This document shows, piece after piece, positions 4,698 to 12,213 of a stretch of 64,000 nucleotides of DNA (position 1 is the first letter of the stretch; each line of letters opens with the position of its first letter). The notes below the pieces were generated by a model. It saw only the letters and a program-made list of their open reading frames with translations, made no database searches and was not told the DNA's origin. This DNA comes from Candidatus Nitricoxidireducens bremensis (lineage in GTDB: Bacteria; Pseudomonadota; Gammaproteobacteria; Burkholderiales; Rhodocyclaceae). The stretch spans positions 161,233-225,232 of the forward strand of contig JAOTRT010000005.1 of NCBI GenBank assembly GCA_030247725.1. Reading direction: 5' to 3'. The position numbers and the translations under genes were made by a program.

Positions 4698-6070
4698 AAC
4701 TGCCCAAGCCGGACGTCCCAGCCCTCGTCGCCGCCGGCATCTACCTCATCTTCGGCGGTCTGTGGATCGTGCTCAGCGACCGCATGCTGGCCCTGCTGGT
4801 GAGCGATCCCGCCACCCTCACCACCTACCAGACCTACAAGGGCGGCGCCTTTGTCGCCGTCATGGCCGTCCTCGCCTACGTGCTGGTGGGCCGTCTCTCG
4901 CGCCAGCTCAAGGCCCTGCAGGAATCGGAGGCGCGGCTCGCCGAAAGCGAGATGCGCTTCCGCGAGATGGCCGAGCACATCGACCAGATCTTCTATCTCG
5001 CCGCCCCCGACTACAGCCGCTTCTTCTACGTCAGTCCCGCCTACGCCTGCATCTGGGGCCGCAGCGCGGAAAGCCTGCTGGCCGACCCGGCCTCATGGCT
5101 CGCCGGCGTCGTCGAGGAGGACCGCCCCCGCGTGCTGGACGTCGTCGCCCGGGGACGCGACAAGGGCTTCTACGAAGACACTTTCCGCGTGCGCCGGCCC
5201 GACGGCACCCAGCGCTGGGTCCATGCCCGCGCCTACGAACTGCGGGACGCCGACGGCCGCGCCTACCGCGTCGCCGGCATCCTGGAGGACATCACCGGAC
5301 GGCATCTCGCCGAAGACCAGATACGCACCCTGGCCCGCGACCTGGAAAGCCGCGTCCAGGAGCGCACGGCGGAACTGGAACAGGCCAACCACGAACTCGA
5401 AGCCTTCTCCTACTCGGTCTCCCACGACCTGCGGGCGCCCCTGCGGGCCCTCAACGGCTTCGCCCACCTGGTGGCCGACGATCCCGGCAGCCACCTGGGT
5501 CCCGAAGCCAAGACCATGCTCGGCCGCATCCGCGTGAATGCCGAGAAGATGGCCACCCTCATCGACGACATCCTCGCCTTTTCCCGTATCGGCCGCAGCG
5601 AGATGAACCATGTCGCCGTGGACATGGCCGCCCTGGCGCGGGAAGTGGCCGAGGAACTGGCGCCCGAGTACCCGGCCGCCCGCGTCGCGATTGGCGAGAT
5701 GCCGACAATCCGCGGCGACGCCAGCATGCTGCGCCTCGTGTGGACCAACCTGATCGGCAACGCCCTCAAGTTCTCCTCCAAGCGCGAAGCGCCGGTGGTG
5801 GAAGCGGGCTGGGAAATGGGCGGCGACGGCCGCACCGTATTCTTCGTGCGCGACAACGGCGCCGGCTTCGACATGGCCTACGCCCAGCGGCTGTTCGGCG
5901 TCTTCCAGCGCCTGCACCGCAGCGAGGACTTCCCCGGCACCGGCGCCGGACTCGCCATCGTCAACCGCATCATCGGCCGCCACGGCGGGCGCATCTGGGC
6001 CGAGGCGGTGCCCGACCACGGCGCCACCTTCCGCTTCACCGTGGCCGCGGCCGGCGACGCGCCGACCTGA
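4694..6070 (+). CDS. membrane-anchored PAS sensor histidine kinase (orphan)
   Basis: The ATG at 4694 overlaps the msrA stop (ATGA). Two N-terminal TM helices, a PAS region (FRVRRPDGTQRWVHARA), an H-box FSYSVSHDLRAPLR, and N/G boxes (GNALKF, DNGAGFD, GTGAGLAIV). Confidence 0.85.
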   Translation: MKLPKPDVPALVAAGIYLIFGGLWIVLSDRMLALLVSDPATLTTYQTYKGGAFVAVMAVLAYVLVGRLSRQLKALQESEARLAESEMRFREMAEHIDQIFYLAAPDYSRFFYVSPAYACIWGRSAESLLADPASWLAGVVEEDRPRVLDVVARGRDKGFYEDTFRVRRPDGTQRWVHARAYELRDADGRAYRVAGILEDITGRHLAEDQIRTLARDLESRVQERTAELEQANHELEAFSYSVSHDLRAPLRALNGFAHLVADDPGSHLGPEAKTMLGRIRVNAEKMATLIDDILAFSRIGRSEMNHVAVDMAALAREVAEELAPEYPAARVAIGEMPTIRGDASMLRLVWTNLIGNALKFSSKREAPVVEAGWEMGGDGRTVFFVRDNGAGFDMAYAQRLFGVFQRLHRSEDFPGTGAGLAIVNRIIGRHGGRIWAEAVPDHGATFRFTVAAAGDAPT

Positions 6071-6087
6071 TCGATCCGTGCCGCCGG

Positions 6088-6741
6088 TCAGCCGGCTGGC
6101 CGGCCGCAAAGCCTCCGCAAGCCGCCGGGCGTGGCAATCCGCGCCGCAAGATAGGGCACTTCGTCAGCAGGTAACGCATGCACGACCGCCGGCCCCGCGA
6201 AGCTTATGGAAGCCAGCAGACGTTCCACCCGCAGCGGATCGGGATGGAATATCTCCAGCATCTCCAGCGCCAGACCGCAGTCAGGCAGCCGCGCCGCCGG
6301 ATGCCCGCCGGCGCGCCACTCGATCAGGGCCGGCGCCACGCCCCCGAGGGGTTGCAGGCCGTCGGACGGGATCGTGATGAGCCATTCGAAAGCGCCCCGG
6401 GACATGGGCTCCACCACCCCCAGCGCCTCGGTCGCCGCCGCCGTCGCGGCGCCGATGTCATCCGTGCGCAGCACCCAGGACCCCAGCCGCGGCAGCGCAT
6501 CTGCCGCCAGCGCATCGAGCCCGAACCAGCGCGGCCGTCCCGGCGCAGGTGCCGCCGGATTCGGCGCGATCACCTCCAGGTAAAGGGCATCCCCGAGCCG
6601 CAGCAACCGGTTGTGGGTCCCCATGCGCAGATGCTCGCCGCCCGGCCCCGGCTCCACGCCGAGAACGTCGCGGACATAGGCGACACCGACCTCAAGGGTT
6701 GGCGCGGTGATGGCGAGGTGATCGATATGGGAGGCGGGCAT
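6088..6741 (-). CDS. VOC (glyoxalase-like domain) family protein
   Basis: 217-aa ORF. The N-terminus HIDHLAITAPTLEVGVAYV...LGV and LYLEVIAPNP are typical of Glyoxalase_3-like proteins. Confidence 0.65.
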   Translation of the reverse strand: MPASHIDHLAITAPTLEVGVAYVRDVLGVEPGPGGEHLRMGTHNRLLRLGDALYLEVIAPNPAAPAPGRPRWFGLDALAADALPRLGSWVLRTDDIGAATAAATEALGVVEPMSRGAFEWLITIPSDGLQPLGGVAPALIEWRAGGHPAARLPDCGLALEMLEIFHPDPLRVERLLASISFAGPAVVHALPADEVPYLAARIATPGGLRRLCGRPAG

Positions 6742-6881
6742 GGGTGCGATCGATTGCGTTCACCGCCTGCACCGATTGACTTCCGGTGGAACGGCGGGTT
6801 GGATACCAGCGCTACGGCTGCCGCTTTCACCAATAGCCAGGACGGCAGCTCTGATGGGCAACGGCCAGAACCGGTGAGCCC

Positions 6882-7214
6882 TCAACTACCAGACGTAGCG
6901 CGACGCTTGGTTGCGGGGCGACTTGGTCGCTTGGCAGCGCGCGGCTCCGCCAGACGACCCGTAACATACTTGTGAAGAACGCTGGCGATGAGCGTTTGGT
7001 ACGGCACACCTTCTTCAAGCGCCCTGACTTGAATGTCGCTCAAATCGCCGGAGGACAAGCGGATGTTGACCCGGCGGTCCTTAATGGCCGTAGCGCGTGC
7101 GGCTGCCTTGAATTTCGCCAGCTCGGCCTTGGTGGCAACGGATTTCAACCGGCCATTATCAAAGGCGGCGAGGACTTCACTTTCGTAGGCATCAATCTTC
7201 GGCATCTGCTTCAC
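6882..7214 (-). CDS. brnA: BrnA-like / CopG-RHH type II antitoxin
   Basis: 110-aa ORF overlapping the upstream toxin ORF by 23 nt. VNIRLSSGDLSDIQVRALEEGVPYQTLIASVLHKYVTG matches the ribbon-helix-helix antitoxins paired with DUF497 toxins. Confidence 0.6.
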   Translation of the reverse strand: MKQMPKIDAYESEVLAAFDNGRLKSVATKAELAKFKAAARATAIKDRRVNIRLSSGDLSDIQVRALEEGVPYQTLIASVLHKYVTGRLAEPRAAKRPSRPATKRRATSGS

Positions 7215-7485
7215 CTTGATTCAAATAGTCCCGCGTTGCCTTGCGGCTCGGGATTACAGTCTTGAGGAAGAAATAGTCATCCTCTTCGACAAACGGCACC
7301 AAGTAGGCGTAGTTGTCGCACGAGACGACAAGAACGCGTTGCCTGGGGTACTTCGCCTGGTTTGGATGAGCCAGGATGTCCAGCAAACCACCGGCCTCGA
7401 TTGAGACAACAATGCTCTCAAACGAAATCCCCCGCTCTGCTTTGACGGTCTCGTTCTTCTCCGGGCTCCAGCGAAACGGCTTCAT
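7192..7485 (-). CDS. brnT: BrnT-like (DUF497-type) type II toxin
   Basis: 97-aa ORF. FRWSPEKNETVKAERGISFESIV ... VIPSRKATRDY parallels the F.WD..KN....RGISFE ... IISARKAT..E pattern of BrnT ribonuclease toxins. Confidence 0.6.
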   Translation of the reverse strand: MKPFRWSPEKNETVKAERGISFESIVVSIEAGGLLDILAHPNQAKYPRQRVLVVSCDNYAYLVPFVEEDDYFFLKTVIPSRKATRDYLNQGEADAED

Positions 7486-7550
7486 GGGGGCAGTCTACGC
7501 GGCTGTGTGCCTTTTGTCACCACCCATGAAGTATCGACGGAAATGAAAAT

Positions 7551-7577
7551 GGCGCGGAGGAATTCGCGCCTTTTTTT
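7551..7577. terminator. hairpin plus T7 run (possibly a bidirectional terminator)
   Basis: GGCGCG-gaggaatt-CGCGCC followed by TTTTTTT on the plus strand. On the minus strand the same hairpin is followed by ATTTTCATTT. It lies between the attC at 7614 and the brnT start. Confidence 0.45.
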
Positions 7578-7613
7578 GTGCCAGAGACGGGCGGAAAAGA
7601 GGTTTTTCTACAG

Positions 7614-7701
7614 CTTCAACGTGGAGGTCACCGGACGCTGTGCGGCTTTATCGCGCAGCGTCCAGCGACCGAAGGGAGCGAGGTCGAGCGCAGGGTTAGA
7701 G
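7614..7701 (-). repeat. attC-like recombination site 1 (88 bp)
   Basis: CTTCAAC ... GTCACCGGACGCTGTGCGGCTTTATCGCGCAGCGTCC ... GTTAGAG. Imperfect palindrome bounded by RYYYAAC-like and GTTRRRY-like heptamers. It starts 26 nt after the stop of ORF 7728..8138. Confidence 0.7.
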
Positions 7702-7727
7702 GACTTCATAATCGAGCACAGAGATTC

Positions 7728-8138
7728 TTAGTTACCTAGCCTTAATTGACCGCTGAGCTCATCTGTTACCTTCCCTATGTTCTGGCTGAGATCTCGGCAC
7801 ACACCTTCCTGCTTATCTGGAGAACCGCTCATAAAGCCGTTGATCGCAACCTTCTTCGATTCTTCCACTAACTGTGGAACATCTCTTCTCTGTTCTTTGG
7901 GAACCAAGAATCGAAAGAGCCTTTCATGGTCAACAGCGGAGAAGATTGAGTCCTTATAGGCGATGTCATTTGCCGCTGCGTATTGCGGAAAGCGGTCTCT
8001 ACACAGAGTGAGAACTGTGCTGATGGAGTGGGCGTTCAAGGCCAAGGAGTACCAGCCGGGAATCACAGGCGCAGCAGCAGATGTGGGCAACGCGGTTGCA
8101 CAGAGTAGAAGCAACCAGCCAAAGTGGATGAGTTTCAT
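7728..8138 (-). CDS. cassette ORF, hypothetical secreted protein
   Basis: 136-aa ORF with a signal-peptide-like N-terminus (LLLLCATALPTSAAAP). AGAGGA Shine-Dalgarno 7 nt upstream of the ATG. No recognisable family. Confidence 0.55.
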   Translation of the reverse strand: MKLIHFGWLLLLCATALPTSAAAPVIPGWYSLALNAHSISTVLTLCRDRFPQYAAANDIAYKDSIFSAVDHERLFRFLVPKEQRRDVPQLVEESKKVAINGFMSGSPDKQEGVCRDLSQNIGKVTDELSGQLRLGN

Positions 8139-8306
8139 TGAGTCCTCTAACGAAGCTGTAGAAAAACTCGGTGAGGGATCAGACGGAGCAAATTCCCGGG
8201 GTCGCTTGACCCTTCCCGGAACTGCGATCGCTCAACCTGATCGATTCTGGCGCGAATATTTTCCTTGTCGTTGATCGGCAGTTTGCGAATTTGAGTTTTC
8301 CTACAG

Positions 8307-8373
8307 CTTCAACGTTTGAATTGAGCGGCCTGCGCGGCTTTTCGCGCAGGTCCGGTGCAATGATGGGTTGGGC
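8307..8373 (-). repeat. attC-like recombination site 2 (67 bp, shorter variant)
   Basis: CTTCAAC gtttgaattgaGCGGCCTGCGCGGCTTTTCGCGCAGGTCCGgtgcaatgatgg GTTGGGC. On the minus strand it begins with a perfect GCCCAAC, 2 nt after the stop of ORF 8376..8675. Confidence 0.7.
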
Positions 8374-8375
8374 CG

Positions 8376-8675
8376 CTACTCGAAATCAACGTAGGTGTTT
8401 CCCTTGTGTTGGCTGACAGACAGCACGGGCTTTGCGTCGCAGCCTTCGCACCAGAAGAAAACCTTCAGTCCGTGGCGACGAGCGCTAGGGTTGCCCTCAA
8501 GCGAGGTATCAAAGGTAGCCTTGCCGTCTGCAACGGCGACGTGCACTCCGTGGGTTGCATCTTCTCCGCACTCGAAGACTTCCACCCGGTCGTGGTGAAG
8601 GTAATTGAAGCCACAAGACGGACACTGGAGTTCTGCGCCATAGCCTTCGTGGTATTCGCCAAATTTCGGGATCAT
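8376..8675 (-). CDS. cassette ORF, hypothetical Cys4 (CxxC...CxxC) protein
   Basis: Track ORF 8376..8708 trimmed to the ATG at 8675, which is preceded by GGAGGAAAC. 99 aa with CPSC and CEGC pairs, suggesting a zinc ribbon. No family recognised. Confidence 0.55.
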   Translation of the reverse strand: MIPKFGEYHEGYGAELQCPSCGFNYLHHDRVEVFECGEDATHGVHVAVADGKATFDTSLEGNPSARRHGLKVFFWCEGCDAKPVLSVSQHKGNTYVDFE

Positions 8676-8748
8676 GTTTCCTCCAGGATGAGTTCGGTAC
8701 TGCTGCACTTAGTAGAAATGCGGGTCGGCATGCTCAGTGGATGAAGCG

Positions 8749-8818
8749 GCCCAACGTAGAAGTCACCGGCGCTGCGCGGCTTTATCGCGCAGCGTCCGTG
8801 TGGACTGCCGGGTTGGGG
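8749..8818 (-). repeat. attC-like recombination site 3 (70 bp)
   Basis: GCCCAAC gtagaaGTCACCGGCGCTGCGCGGCTTTATCGCGCAGCGTCCgtgtggactgccgg GTTGGGG. It ends 2 nt from the stop of ORF 8821..9198. Confidence 0.75.
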
Positions 8819-8820
8819 GC

Positions 8821-9198
8821 CTATTCATCGCTACTGTTGAATGGATGATGCTCAAGCAACCCCCACATGTCATCGTCTATTTCAGAGCCACGTGCGCCAA
8901 CTTCGAACAACAGCCTTTTGGTTGTTTCGTCATCAGCTCCAATAACCCTGCTGAGCGTGGACAGCTTTCTCCAGCGCTGTGGAAAGCGGGAGTCGTTGAG
9001 CATTGCCTTTAGTAGTACTTTGCGACTATCGTCTAGCTTCTGTCGTGGCCCATCTTGGATTTTGTGGAGAGCGATATTGCCAACGACGGTAACGACAGCA
9101 CCAATTGCAACCCCTGCAAGCCCCACCACAGCCACCCAAAATGAAGTGTCGGCCACAACCTTCTTTGCAATCTCGGCAGCGAGAACTGTTGTTTCCAT
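8821..9198 (-). CDS. cassette ORF, hypothetical membrane-anchored protein
   Basis: 125-aa ORF with one N-terminal TM helix (FWVAVVGLAGVAIGAVVTVVGNIAL) and a charged C-terminal domain. It lies 43 nt downstream of ORF 9242..9652 with no attC between them. Confidence 0.55.
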   Translation of the reverse strand: METTVLAAEIAKKVVADTSFWVAVVGLAGVAIGAVVTVVGNIALHKIQDGPRQKLDDSRKVLLKAMLNDSRFPQRWRKLSTLSRVIGADDETTKRLLFEVGARGSEIDDDMWGLLEHHPFNSSDE

Positions 9199-9241
9199 AA
9201 ATTGACACTCCGTCCCTTACTGGATGCCCATTAGTTGTGTT

Positions 9242-9652
9242 TTATTTCTTTGAGCCATTAGTCGATGAGCTGCATTGATAAGAGACTGCTAGGGCAAGAT
9301 AGGTAACCATCGCGCCTCTGTCGCCTGCGCTACGACGTGCCAATTCAATGAGTTCAGGTTTTGCCCGGAGGACGGATAGCACTTGTCGAGCAACTTCGCT
9401 CGGCATAATTGACTCCTTATCGAAACACGGGTAAGGCAACGGCACTGGCTTCTGGCGCTGAAATGTTGCGGTCATTATCCCGTCAAGAACACCAAGGCAA
9501 TATGCTGCGTGAACCGCATCCTCGCCCAATGTACTTTTGCGTTCCTCGGCAATTGCTGTACAGCCCCTAATCAAATCTGGCGTAAACGCCCATGAGCATG
9601 GCGATACAAAAGTGCTAAGAAAAAGGACAGTAACAAAAAAGGCTTTCATCAT
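9242..9652 (-). CDS. cassette ORF, periplasmic Cys-containing protein (possibly Rap1a/Tai4-like immunity fold)
   Basis: Track ORF 9242..9679 trimmed to ATGATG at 9652, preceded by GGTGAGGAA. Signal peptide MMKAFFVTVLFLSTFVSPCSWA. The pattern AAYCLGVLDGI ... PYPCF ... MPSEVARQVLSVLRAKPEL ... ALAVSYQC recalls Rap1a-type T6SS immunity proteins, from memory and unverified. Confidence 0.5.
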   Translation of the reverse strand: MMKAFFVTVLFLSTFVSPCSWAFTPDLIRGCTAIAEERKSTLGEDAVHAAYCLGVLDGIMTATFQRQKPVPLPYPCFDKESIMPSEVARQVLSVLRAKPELIELARRSAGDRGAMVTYLALAVSYQCSSSTNGSKK

Positions 9653-9705
9653 TTCCTCACCTTGTAGTGGATAGCCCAACGAATTGAGGATTCCATATTG
9701 AAGGC

Positions 9706-9775
9706 CCCCAACGTGGAGGTAACCGGCGCTGCGCGGCTTTATCGCGCAGCGTCCGTGTTGACCGAAAGGTTATGC
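9706..9775 (-). repeat. attC-like recombination site 4 (70 bp)
   Basis: CCCCAAC gtggagGTAACCGGCGCTGCGCGGCTTTATCGCGCAGCGTCCgtgttgaccgaaag GTTATGC. Nearly identical core to sites 1 and 3. It lies 21 nt after the mgtC stop. Confidence 0.75.
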
Positions 9776-9796
9776 ATCGATGCCACCGCTGCTCTA

Positions 9797-10489
9797 TCAA
9801 TCACCCGTTGGCGAAATGCGGAAGGCACGAACGGTCTCCAGTTGGCGCAGAGAAACAGCAAGCGCCGAGAGGTTTTCCGGGTTGATGGTGCGAATGACCA
9901 TTCGGTACTCAAACGAAAGTCGATCATCTGAAACCCGGTAGCTCATGTTGGCAACCGTGAAGCCGTTTTGCTCCAAGAACGCTCTTAGCTCGGGTTCTGG
10001 CATGACGTTACTTCGATCAAAGCGAACGAAGTGATGGGCATAGTAATGGGATGGTAGTTTCGCTTCGATCCAGCGGAAGAACGAAAGAGTTCCGATGGTA
10101 AAAGCTGTAGCAAGGACGGCTGGTGCATAGAACCCAATGCCAAGCAAAATTCCGATGGCTGCGGTAATCCAAATCGAGGCAGCCGTTGTTAAGCCGCGAA
10201 CCGAAAGCCCTTCCTTGAAAATCACGCCCGCGCCCAGAAAGCCGATACCGGTCATGATCCCCTGGGCCATGCGCGTTGGGTCCGTTCGTACAGTGTCGAG
10301 TGGAACGCCCGGCAGCCACTGCCACTGATAGAGCGTGACCAGCATTAGCAGGCTGGAAGCAAGACACACAAGCGTATGAGTGCGAAAACCTGCCGGCCGA
10401 CCGTGAAAGCTTCTCTCAAGCCCAATAATTCCTCCAGCCAGGAGTGCTGCTGTGAGGTGGACAAAGATTTTGAGAAAGTCGGTATCCAT
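9797..10489 (-). CDS. mgtC: MgtC/SapB family membrane protein
   Basis: 230-aa ORF. LLAGGIIGLERSFHGRPAGFRTHTLVCLASS and GIGFLGAGVIF are hallmark MgtC motifs. An ACT-like C-terminal domain is present. Confidence 0.85.
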   Translation of the reverse strand: MDTDFLKIFVHLTAALLAGGIIGLERSFHGRPAGFRTHTLVCLASSLLMLVTLYQWQWLPGVPLDTVRTDPTRMAQGIMTGIGFLGAGVIFKEGLSVRGLTTAASIWITAAIGILLGIGFYAPAVLATAFTIGTLSFFRWIEAKLPSHYYAHHFVRFDRSNVMPEPELRAFLEQNGFTVANMSYRVSDDRLSFEYRMVIRTINPENLSALAVSLRQLETVRAFRISPTGD

Positions 10490-10795
10490 CGCTTGCCTCC
10501 GAGTTTAGCTGAGCACCGTCTTCGATGCATAACGTAAAGTCTGCCGCCTAAAATTTGACGGAAAGCTTCCCGTCATTCGAGACGAATAAAACGGCGGCGC
10601 GGGAATGGATTCGATGTCGATCAACACGTTGCGAAATTTTAGTGGCACCTAAAAGTCGCCGCCACAGGCGGCGTCCGATCCGTTCGCTACAACTATGAAT
10701 CCGGGATAGTCCGCATCCTGCCATCACTCCCACAGAATGACAACGGCGAGCACCACGACCCGGGGGTTTAGCCCACCCACGCACCCATGCCCAAA

Positions 10796-10876
10796 GCGAT
10801 GGGGCGGGGTGGTCCCGGGCGAGGCATTCGACGCTTCTCAGTCGCTAACGAGTCCGGGACCACCCCGCCCCATCGC
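10796..10876. repeat. perfect 23-bp inverted repeat with 35-nt spacer
   Basis: GCGATGGGGCGGGGTGGTCCCGG (10796-10818) and its exact reverse complement (10854-10876). It lies 20 nt downstream of the dctM stop and at the right edge of the low-GC island. Confidence 0.8.
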
Positions 10877-10896
10877 GCTCCGCAGCGAAATCCAAC

Positions 10897-12213
10897 CTAC
10901 CCCATCCACCGCACCAGAAACAGGCTGACGGAAGGAAACATCAGCAGCAGCAGAATCCGGAAGGCATCCGAGACAAGAAACGGCATCACGCCACGATAGG
11001 TCTCCGCCATCGGCACATCCCGCGCCAGGCCGTGGATGACGTAGACGTTCAGCCCCACCGGCGGCGCGATGAGGCCCACCTCGACGACCATCAGCACCAG
11101 GATGCCGAACCAGATCGCTTTGTCGGCGGCGGCCAGGCCCCAGAGGTCCAGTCCCATAACGGCGGGGAAGAGCACCGGGATGGTCAGTACGATCATCGCC
11201 AGCTCGTCCATCACGGCGCCGAGCAGGATGTAGAAGACGAGGATCGCCGCCACCACCAGCAGGGGCGGCACGTCCAGCGTCGCCACCGCCTGGGCCACCT
11301 GGGCCGGCACCTGGGAAAGGGCGAGGGTCGCGTTGAGCATGTCGGCGCCGATGAAGATCAGGAACACCATGGCCGTGGTTTCGGCGGTGCCGAGGAAGCA
11401 GCGGCCCAGGGTCGCGACGCCCAGTTCCCCCCGCGCCAGGGCCATGACCAGGGTCGCGGCAGCGCCGACGGCCGCGCCCTCGGTGGGGGTGAACAGCCCG
11501 CCGTAGATGCCGCCGAAGACGACGACGAAGATCGCCAGCACGGGCCACACGGCGGCCAGCTCTCGCCAGTGGCTGCCGGGCTCGGGGGCCGGCGGCGGCG
11601 CCAGCTCGGGATGCCGGCGCACCTGCACGGCAATGGCGACGACGTAGCCGACGGCCGCAATGAAGCCCGGCACCAGCGCGGCGGCGAAAAGCTTGCCGAC
11701 GCTCTGCTCGGCCAGGATCGCGTAGATCACCAGCACCACCGAGGGCGGGATCAGGATGCCCAGGGTGCCGCCGGCCGCCAGCGTCGCCGTGGCGAGCCGG
11801 CCCGAATAGCCGGCGCGGCGCATCTCCGGCAGAGCCACCTGGCCGATGGTGGCGGCGGTGGCCACCGAGGAGCCGCAAATGGCGCCGAAGGCCGCGCAGG
11901 CCAGCACGGCGGCCATGGCCATGCCGCCGCGCAGGCGGCCCACCACAGCGTTGGCGGCGCGGAACAGGTCCCGCGACAGGCCGCCCTGGCTGGCGAACTG
12001 GCCCATGAGCAGAAACAGGGGAATCACCGTCAGGTCGTAATTGGAGAAGCGCGCCCACACGGCGCCCTTGAGATGGGCCAGCAGGGGCGCCTCCCCGGCC
12101 AGCAGCCAGTAGCCGACGGCGCCGGGCACGAACATGGCGGCGGCGATGGGCACCCGCAGGGCCATCAGCGCCAGCATGGCGCCGAACACCGAGAGGGCGA
12201 CGGTCACGGCCAC
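10897..12213 (-). CDS. dctM: TRAP transporter large permease
   Basis: Track ORF 10897..12501 trimmed to the GTG at 12213, which overlaps the dctQ stop. Polytopic DctM-like sequence (IPLFLLMGQFASQGG, CGSSVATAATIG, PPVGLNVYV). Confidence 0.9.
   Translation of the reverse strand: MAVTVALSVFGAMLALMALRVPIAAAMFVPGAVGYWLLAGEAPLLAHLKGAVWARFSNYDLTVIPLFLLMGQFASQGGLSRDLFRAANAVVGRLRGGMAMAAVLACAAFGAICGSSVATAATIGQVALPEMRRAGYSGRLATATLAAGGTLGILIPPSVVLVIYAILAEQSVGKLFAAALVPGFIAAVGYVVAIAVQVRRHPELAPPPAPEPGSHWRELAAVWPVLAIFVVVFGGIYGGLFTPTEGAAVGAAATLVMALARGELGVATLGRCFLGTAETTAMVFLIFIGADMLNATLALSQVPAQVAQAVATLDVPPLLVVAAILVFYILLGAVMDELAMIVLTIPVLFPAVMGLDLWGLAAADKAIWFGILVLMVVEVGLIAPPVGLNVYVIHGLARDVPMAETYRGVMPFLVSDAFRILLLLMFPSVSLFLVRWMG

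Follow-up and report, generated by a model that had tools for sequence, protein, structure and literature searches.

A probable chromosomal integron without an integrase gene, with a putative retained attI site and first cassettes that differ between strains

Clusters of attC sites that lack integron integrases (CALINs) outnumber complete integrons, and it is seldom clear if they are defunct leftovers or still take part in the cassette economy. That question is raised by a locus in a 64,000-nt stretch of the Candidatus Nitricoxidireducens bremensis genome (contig JAOTRT010000005.1, positions 161,233 to 225,232; hereafter the window), in which an array of short genes and palindromes lies between the TRAP dctPQM operon and a VOC/glyoxalase gene. 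We conclude that positions 6882-10712 are very probably a chromosomal integron that has lost its integrase gene, intI, and that consists of an attI site and six units on the minus strand. The initial annotation had described a CALIN, or an array separated from its integrase. The cassette array stands and the CALIN label fits, there being no intI in the window; the label can be refined, since attI appears to be kept, to an integron that lost intI rather than a set of stray cassettes. CALINs and ΔintI integrons are an already known kind of element. What goes beyond the routine is the retained attI, the turnover between strains at attI without an adjacent integrase, and the membership of the attC sites in the blaOXA-2 attC family. 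The locus therefore offers a concrete case in which attI is kept, intI is gone in every strain seen and the first cassette differs between strains. For annotation, the region is best labelled an integron array and its small open reading frames (ORFs) cassette genes.

Are the palindromes of this locus attC sites? All four that had been proposed were found:

7614-7701: attC site 1 (88 nt, a longer variant), plus-strand heptamers CTTCAAC (7614-7620) and GTTAGAG (7695-7701)
8307-8373: attC site 2 (a shorter variant), plus-strand heptamers CTTCAAC (8307-8313) and GTTGGGC (8367-8373)
8749-8818: attC site 3, plus-strand heptamers GCCCAAC (8749-8755) and GTTGGGG (8812-8818)
9706-9775: attC site 4, plus-strand heptamers CCCCAAC (9706-9712) and GTTATGC (9769-9775)

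The four sites share one orientation, with the cassettes on the minus strand and the attC bottom strand corresponding to the window plus strand, on which an RYYYAAC-type heptamer opens and a GTTRRRY-type heptamer closes each site. They cluster within 2.2 kb, where a CALIN is defined by at least two attC sites no more than 4 kb apart. The 18-nt core CGCGGCTTTATCGCGCAG, claimed as common to sites 1, 3 and 4, begins at 7641, 8775 and 9732 (with one mismatch at site 1); these three copies, all in the array and with no other in the 64 kb, compare with 0.17 expected by chance, and none of 100 shuffles reached three. The attC-type heptamers and bulged arms could be read directly, and they are borne out by the folds of the sites as single-stranded DNA. 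Sites 2-4 fold better than shuffles (z -3.0 to -4.7), and the bottom strand of site 3 has the canonical attC fold (-24.6 kcal/mol, z -4.7), with a paired R box, an internal loop, an L box and bulges on the 3' arm. The reported ORF-attC periodicity also holds, sites 1 to 4 starting 26, 2, 2 and 21 nt after the stop codons of minus-strand ORFs, as does the dip in G+C, which is 0.50-0.56 across 7000-10500 and 0.66-0.75 in the flanks. Every credible ORF in this low-G+C island lies on the minus strand. A scan of 6000-11500 against Rfam, which has no attC family, gave only chance miRNA-like matches on a hairpin at 10796-10876.

The initial annotation had proposed a search with an attC model as its check. 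We built a covariance model (R1) from five attC sites, none of them from the window: those of blaOXA-2, of integron L003 and of plasmids of Thauera, Serpentinimonas and Delftia. With R box, L box and stem annotated by hand, it was run over the whole 64 kb with filters off, and it was significant at exactly the four sites:

8744-8823, plus strand: site 3, 91.1 bits, E 4e-26
9701-9780, plus strand: site 4, 83.7 bits, E 9e-24
8302-8378, plus strand: site 2, 43.1 bits, E 6e-11
7620-7676, plus strand: site 1, local match, 38.8 bits, E 1e-9

Elsewhere in the 64 kb the best match reached only 12.7 bits (E 0.24), and no fifth attC was found. The plus strand far outscored the minus strand at site 3 (91 against 26 bits) and site 4 (84 against 19 bits), which identifies it as the recombinogenic bottom strand. 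Across 24 family members, drawn from fetched loci as well as the window, standard pairs fill 95% of pair cells, and 13 of the 23 pairs have changes on both sides, compared with 5.2 +/- 1.4 in shuffles and 5-7 with slid partners, in an alignment that was itself fitted to the model. On this sequence evidence, the four sites are true attC sites.

A blastn comparison of the array with plasmids showed sites 3 and 4 to match the blaOXA-2 cassette's attC in class 1 mobile integrons at approximately 92% (91-93%) identity; that attC is likewise 70 nt long (PMC5027507, PMC2727003). Site 2 is 92.6% identical to an attC of integron L003. The blaOXA-2 attC and sites 3 and 4 share R and L boxes and three extrahelical bases on the same arm; on the plus strand 3' arm of sites 3 and 4 these are bulged G, T and T, at the attCoxa2 positions G16, A20 and T24. 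In attCoxa2, which has three extrahelical bases, IntI1 binds the bottom strand only and recombination proceeds at ~4e-1 (PMC5027507). The cargo differs from that of class 1 integrons with blaOXA-2, and the window has no resistance gene, intI1, attI1 or 3' conserved segment (3'-CS). Attachment sites of the blaOXA-2 type occur in 106 plasmid records, mostly of clinical plasmids, and also in plasmids of Thauera, Serpentinimonas and Delftia. The likeness hints that the blaOXA-2 cassette may have been assembled in a beta-proteobacterial integron pool. Published models that predict the source of attC sites do not cover Betaproteobacteria (PMC8352920). Seen from the resistance cassette, the blaOXA-2 attC (L033 2495-2574) is ~92% identical to the attC type that is usual in window-like environmental arrays. 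Environmental Betaproteobacteria from wastewater, sediment and groundwater can now be said to harbour this attC type, both in plasmids and in chromosomal arrays, and such an environmental home is a lead on the origin of that resistance cassette.

In a true cassette, the first six bases after the G are the distal half of its own R' and complement the R'' that opens its attC. All six unit junctions of the array read CG|TT; beyond the four attC sites, they include 8151, the fifth cassette junction, which the initial annotation had not listed, and 10533, the first (G|TTATGC). The units are, from the attI end:

9712-10532, minus strand: cassette A, gene for an MgtC/SapB-family membrane protein (ORF 9797-10489) and attC site 4
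8755-9711, minus strand: cassette B, two genes (9242-9652 and 8821-9198) and attC site 3
8313-8754, minus strand: cassette C, gene for a 99-aa four-cysteine putative zinc protein (ORF 8376-8675) and attC site 2
8151-8312, minus strand: unit D, 162 nt without an ORF, with a terminal inverted repeat of 16-18 nt, GAAGCTGTAGRAAAAC
7620-8150, minus strand: cassette E, gene for a 136-aa signal-peptide protein of no known family (ORF 7728-8138) and attC site 1
6882-7619, minus strand: cassette F, putative brnT (7192-7485) and brnA (6882-7205) toxin-antitoxin genes, with no attC after them

The complementarity between start and R'' holds for four of five cassettes. Cassette A starts GTTATGC (10533-10527) and has the R'' GCATAAC; cassette B starts GTTGGGG at 9712, complementary to CCCCAAC; cassette C starts GTTGGGC at 8755, complementary to GCCCAAC; and the start of cassette E, GTTAGAGGA (8151-8143), exactly complements its R'', TCCTCTAAC (7703-7695), at 9/9 positions. 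Unit D and the terminal brnTA cassette are an imperfect fit to this logic.

That these units move is supported by their recurrence elsewhere. Cassettes A, B and C are found at 95-100% identity in unrelated contigs, with homology that ends at the G|TT crossover; of these cassettes, A and B adjoin bona fide integron integrase genes there. The exact MgtC protein of cassette A is present in 39 blocks of the public collection, and its DNA is 99.8-100% identical in eight unrelated contigs (L001-L008), from 10532-10535 to 9706-9713 or to the contig end; in L003, L004 and L005 it lies in arrays adjoining divergent genes that score 478-488 bits with TIGR02249 (cut-off 265). Cassette B is 98.2% identical over 966 nt (9714-8749) in five wastewater contigs, L163-L166 among them, and in L163/L164 it is the first cassette, beside attI and intI (TIGR02249, 376 bits). 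The exact protein of cassette C occurs in the arrays L011/L012, where the DNA is 95% identical from the junction onward. Low-G+C cassettes in high-G+C hosts are a pattern also seen in L001-L004. Judged by these shared boundaries, the cassettes of the window are discrete mobile units. Two of the contigs also show altered integrase genes. In L001 (GCA_048499735.1, which carries the MgtC cassette), intI at 7507-8052 is cut to 181 aa by an internal deletion, a case of independent integrase decay beside the same cassette pool, and in L163 (91-5073), a wastewater integron whose attI matches that of the window best, the 3' end of intI is truncated by three consecutive tyrosine-recombinase genes that resemble a recombinase-in-trio.

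Does the array keep the platform at which cassettes are inserted? The candidate lies directly before cassette A:

10533-10660 (128 nt), minus strand: attI-type site, crossover G(10533)|TT(10532-10531), with homology to the attI of L163/L164

This segment has a G+C of 0.49 in a ~70% G+C genome, and it aligns with the attI beside the TIGR02249 integrase gene of L163/L164 at 61% identity over 137 columns; the local alignment score is 34, compared with 15.5 +/- 2.3 for shuffles, of which 0/3000 reach 34. Two blocks, TTTTAGG..CCACTAAAA and TTTTAGGC.GC.GACTTTACGTT, are conserved and lie ~100 nt apart in both the window and L163. The block adjacent to the crossover reads TTTTAGGCGGCAGACTTTACGTT in the window and TTTTAGGCAGCCGACTTTACGTT in L163, and the one ~100 nt upstream of the crossover reads TTTTAGGTGCCACTAAAATTTCGCAAC and TTTTAGGCTCCACTAAAAATGTCCAAC, respectively. 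The window and the attI of L003/L005 have the ACTTTACGTT end in common, as well as an AAATTTTAG block, and a sequence 86% identical to 10530-10599 lies in another context on a metagenome contig (X6 record 5). We take 10533-10660 to be a retained attI, on the strength of these alignments. A reading of 10534-10640 as an additional attC was ruled out by its very asymmetric arms and by the alignment to a real attI. A scan of metagenome contigs with the pattern AAATTTTAG N5-20 ACTTTACGTT returned ribosomal protein L2 and AT-rich chance matches, with no window-type attI among the matches listed.

In a complete integron, intI is adjacent to and divergent from attI; no such gene is present in the window. 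The first junction is only 364 nt from the dctM stop codon, and this interval is non-coding for IntI. As the initial annotation had noted for the flanks, there is no tyrosine recombinase of this type: tblastn with four integron integrases against the 64 kb returned nothing (best E 1.6), not even an intI fragment, and intI is missing from the 53 kb that lie beyond attI and from 6.8 kb past the opposite end, a CALIN being defined by the lack of an integrase gene within 4 kb. The start codon of intI in L163 is directly adjacent to the upstream attI block. Where L163 has ATGAATTCC, the window has ATGAATCC (plus strand, 10695-10702), with a stop codon directly after it; possibly this is all that is left of the intI start codon, a likeness that is only suggestive.

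The host, an uncultured wastewater/groundwater bacterium, was recognised in public runs and is dominant in wastewater run X2 (depth ~550-640), and relatives with 0-2% flank divergence were found in aquatic (X4/X5), sediment (X6 and X7) and groundwater (X8) metagenomes. All of these are colinear with 10530/10531-10960, with 0-8 mismatches, and therefore none has intI at that junction. Among the five strains, namely the window and its four relatives, five different sequences abut the same crossover (plus strand):

Window: ...GATGCA|TAAC
X4: ...TTGTGGGC|TAAC (other strand GTTAGCC)
X6: ...AAAGGGGC|TAAC (other strand GTTAGCC)
X7: ...GAAGTGCCC|TAAC (other strand GTTAGGG)
X8: ...CTGACGCCC|AAC (other strand GTTGGGC)

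The sequences of the relatives end in ...RRRC|(T)AAC, which on the other strand are proper cassette R' ends. X7 and the window are identical across 431 nt of flank but differ in their first cassette. At the opposite end, the VOC gene and brnTA are contiguous in all four relatives. X4/X5 lack A-B and D+E, an attC2-like site being joined directly to the brnTA unit, and unit D and cassette E are present in X6. Both ends of the array are thus fixed among strains and the middle varies. An array that is invariant in relatives had been named as a reason to doubt the integron reading; instead, four strains keep the flanks and carry other cassettes. In a search of a species collection with the VOC protein, the best relative was 64% identical (an Azonexus metagenome-assembled genome) and showed no synteny to dctM or the kinase gene.

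Since the same intI-less junction is found in all strains, one ancestral deletion is the simplest explanation, and we propose that intI would have been deleted once, in the common ancestor of the strains. Different first cassettes at one nucleotide after that deletion would imply recombination between attI and attC, and hence an integrase acting in trans. Such an integrase, encoded elsewhere, would recombine attI with attC at G(10533)|TT, thereby inserting circular cassettes, and would excise cassettes by attC x attC recombination; its source would be a second integron in the genome, or otherwise in the cell, or a passing mobile integron, e.g. of class 1, whose IntI1 is efficient at recombining attC sites of this family. 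The brnTA cassette, having no attC and so not being excisable, would anchor the distal end. We consider the odds to be even that the attI-proximal cassette has been replaced repeatedly since the loss of intI by an integrase in trans, and that the orphan attI is still an active platform. If true, CALINs of this kind would be living, integrase-free cassette banks that exchange with the pool that supplied blaOXA-2.

Several points weigh against this proposal or against the integron reading as a whole. The strains were compared through assembled contigs and 30-nt loose ends rather than through complete alternative arrays, and the 64 kb in view are a small basis for judging whether intI is present elsewhere in the genome. 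The homology of the putative attI is moderate (61%), and no attI of this integron type has been tested; a second attI copy of at least 80% likeness was not found in the two metagenomes containing the host that were searched. The terminal cassette without attC and the off-model unit D suggest that part of the array was rearranged by a non-canonical route. Finally, the attC sites, being 85-96% alike, could also support RecA-dependent deletions.

This last point also figures in the view that the array is a frozen relic, inactive since the loss of intI, whose strain differences stem from homologous loss between attC sites or from replacement of the whole array from relatives. No intI is in reach, the attC sites share stretches of 28-73 nt at 85-96% identity that RecA could use, both conserved ends could serve as homology arms, and Xanthomonas citri provides documented CALINs of fixed content (PMC12444791). 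However, five strains have five first cassettes, all at the same G|TT nucleotide, and deletion between attC sites cannot make new attI junctions because attI shares no homology with attC. The nearest attI found to have its neighbourhood intact is too dissimilar for homologous exchange, at 61% identity. The first cassette of X7 differs beside its 431 nt of identical flank. Cassette A is moreover 100% identical in unrelated genomes, against 1-2% divergence of the host flanks, which speaks for recent acquisition. We regard a frozen array as unlikely. It is somewhat easier to credit, though still doubtful, that the integron is split, with intI remaining in the genome and parted from the array by a rearrangement; the array would in that case belong to a functional integron with two widely separated halves. 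Half of CALINs lie in genomes that encode IntI, rearrangement has been proposed as one origin of CALINs (Cury et al., PMC4889954), and the possible start-codon remnant at 10695-10702 would fit. Against this, the interval from attI to dctM shows no sign of an insertion sequence, transposase or inversion scar; the only repeat there is the 23-nt inverted one, and X6, without the repeat, is without intI alike. Nor does the window hold any intI fragment. A split integron is compatible with our explanation, being one way in which IntI could be supplied in trans.

Two further explanations dispense with an integron platform. Cassettes could have been inserted at a non-canonical site (attG or another secondary site), so that no platform ever existed and the DNA right of 10533 is ordinary host intergenic sequence. 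Insertions made by IntI away from att sites are on record (cited in PMC12444791; bioRxiv 10.1101/2022.09.11.507474) and no intI remnant is recognisable, but 10533-10660 is 49% G+C in a 70% G+C genome, its two blocks align at equal spacing to the attI beside a real intI in L163/L164, and 10530-10599 has its 86% identical copy in another context in X6 record 5. We consider insertion of this kind very improbable. The idea that the palindromes are host repeats between ordinary genes, like repetitive extragenic palindromes or bacterial interspersed mosaic elements, is drawn from their being G+C-rich, imperfect and intergenic, and it is refuted. The initial annotation would have expected such a repeat to be scattered genome-wide between ordinary core genes; the palindrome is not scattered in the window and has no copy outside the array in 64 kb; the sites lie in a low-G+C island, travel with cassettes into unrelated genomes and plasmids, and match an experimentally recombined attC.

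How does an integron that has lost intI and kept attI compare with known systems? Cury et al. (2016) described 279 CALINs, of which 95% had no intI pseudogene, half were in genomes encoding IntI elsewhere and 83% contained under six attC sites (PMC4889954). The window array resembles these in having at least two attC sites within 4 kb, no nearby intI and no recognisable intI pseudogene, and also in its small size (four attC sites), the unassigned function of most cassettes and its likely beta-proteobacterial host. It differs in keeping an attI homologous to that of a complete integron and in the turnover of its first cassette in the population; attI is not normally assessed for CALINs outside classes 1-3. 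The ilvD integrons of Xanthomonas, with inactivated intI, and the CALINs of that genus likewise occupy a fixed chromosomal locus at which arrays persist after integrase loss (PMC12444791). There, loss of intI goes with frozen content (e.g. in pv. citri), whereas here content differs across a shared intI-less junction. With the Vibrio cholerae superintegron the array shares a chromosomal location, homogeneous attC sites, toxin-antitoxin cassettes and an order in which new cassettes lie at the attI end and older ones are distal, but it has six units instead of tens to hundreds and no adjacent intI. In addition, the G+C of the cassettes (0.50-0.57) is far below that of the host, which argues that they were not shaped in this genome.

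The distal end of the array is formed by cassette F. Its two genes match BrnT_toxin at 23.7 bits (cut-off 34.5) and CopG_antitoxin at 25.6 bits (cut-off 28) in Pfam, both below threshold; gene order, a 14-nt overlap and sizes fit a BrnT/BrnA type II pair. Homologues of BrnA number more than 7000 and are all ~107 aa long, which indicates that the window brnA ORF is intact. In L156/L157 the same brnA is followed 16 nt on by an attC of this family (48 bits), which shows that brnTA forms a cassette in other settings. Within the window, the similarity to other brnTA copies ends at the brnA stop codon (6882) and the 140 nt between brnA and the VOC gene have a host-like G+C of 0.64; 6878-6980 folds no better than shuffles (z -0.3) and has no R1 match. 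As far as these comparisons go, the terminal cassette has lost its attC and thereby excision by the normal route, and it is fixed beside the VOC gene in all four related strains. The pair has its own promoter-like site, with a bidirectional terminator-like hairpin upstream at 7551-7570. This hairpin, GGCGCGGAGGAATTCGCGCC, is strong, has T runs on both strands and lies just 5' of brnT; it would shield the toxin-antitoxin pair from transcription of the array.

Among the other units, only cassette A has a clear family assignment (Pfam MgtC, E 1e-40). In cassette B, gene 9242-9652 encodes a 136-aa secreted protein that is weakly Rap1a-like (Pfam Rap1a E 1.8e-4, under the family cut-off) and whose AlphaFold model is poor (pLDDT 57) and unfit for a fold search; gene 8821-9198 encodes a 125-aa protein with an N-terminal membrane helix. 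The 99-aa protein of cassette C has a confident all-beta AlphaFold model (pLDDT 95) with a CxxC...CxxC site. A comparison with PDB found no structural neighbour (best E 0.43), and in BFVD two uncharacterised phage proteins match with TM scores of 0.84 and 0.77. The family of this protein is unannotated and comprises at least 132 clusters, which include Shewanella, Aeromonas and Desulfosarcina. For the 136-aa protein of cassette E and for BrnT, no exact-protein record was found in the public collection, and the exact DctP of the flank is recorded solely from the same study as the window. The suggestion that the cassettes carry anti-phage functions was not supported: PADLOC gave one weak match (E 7e-4) and PHROGs only marginal ones, for the 99-aa protein.

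Unit D has no ORF in any of six frames, is flanked by G|TT junctions at 8313 and 8151, and has a fold of -31.7 kcal/mol (z -3.2). It may be a cassette lacking an ORF and bearing an atypical attC, or else a small element with inverted repeats that was inserted at GTT. Its first 18 nt (TTGAAGCTGTAGRAAAAC) equal the start of the brnTA cassette at 7619, with an inverted copy at its own end; the match is limited to this 16-18 nt terminal motif, and unit D was accordingly rejected as a copy of attI or of the brnT leader.

Transcription of the array is probable. A metatranscriptome of the same study (X3) yielded contigs that run unbroken through 10800-10480 and every cassette, and their depth over the array is ~2-4x that over dctM and the VOC gene, contig depth being a poor measure and DNA carry-over possible. 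As dctPQM has the same orientation, read-through from it could plausibly be the source; the cassettes would be transcribed from upstream, either in this way or from a promoter in the attI region.

Two further features of the flanks were observed. Between attI and the dctM stop codon lies a perfect 23-nt inverted repeat with a 35-nt loop (10796-10876). Strain X6 has 29 other nt in its place, and the X4 assembly has a diverged copy at another position; the repeat has the appearance of a small palindromic element dispersed in the host, outside the integron. On the other side of the array, comparison of 6071-6182 with L154 and X4 contig 11 shows that relatives have an insert of ~2.5 kb between the VOC and histidine-kinase genes that is absent from the window, and in these strains the insert carries a 783-aa TPR/CHAT-domain gene.

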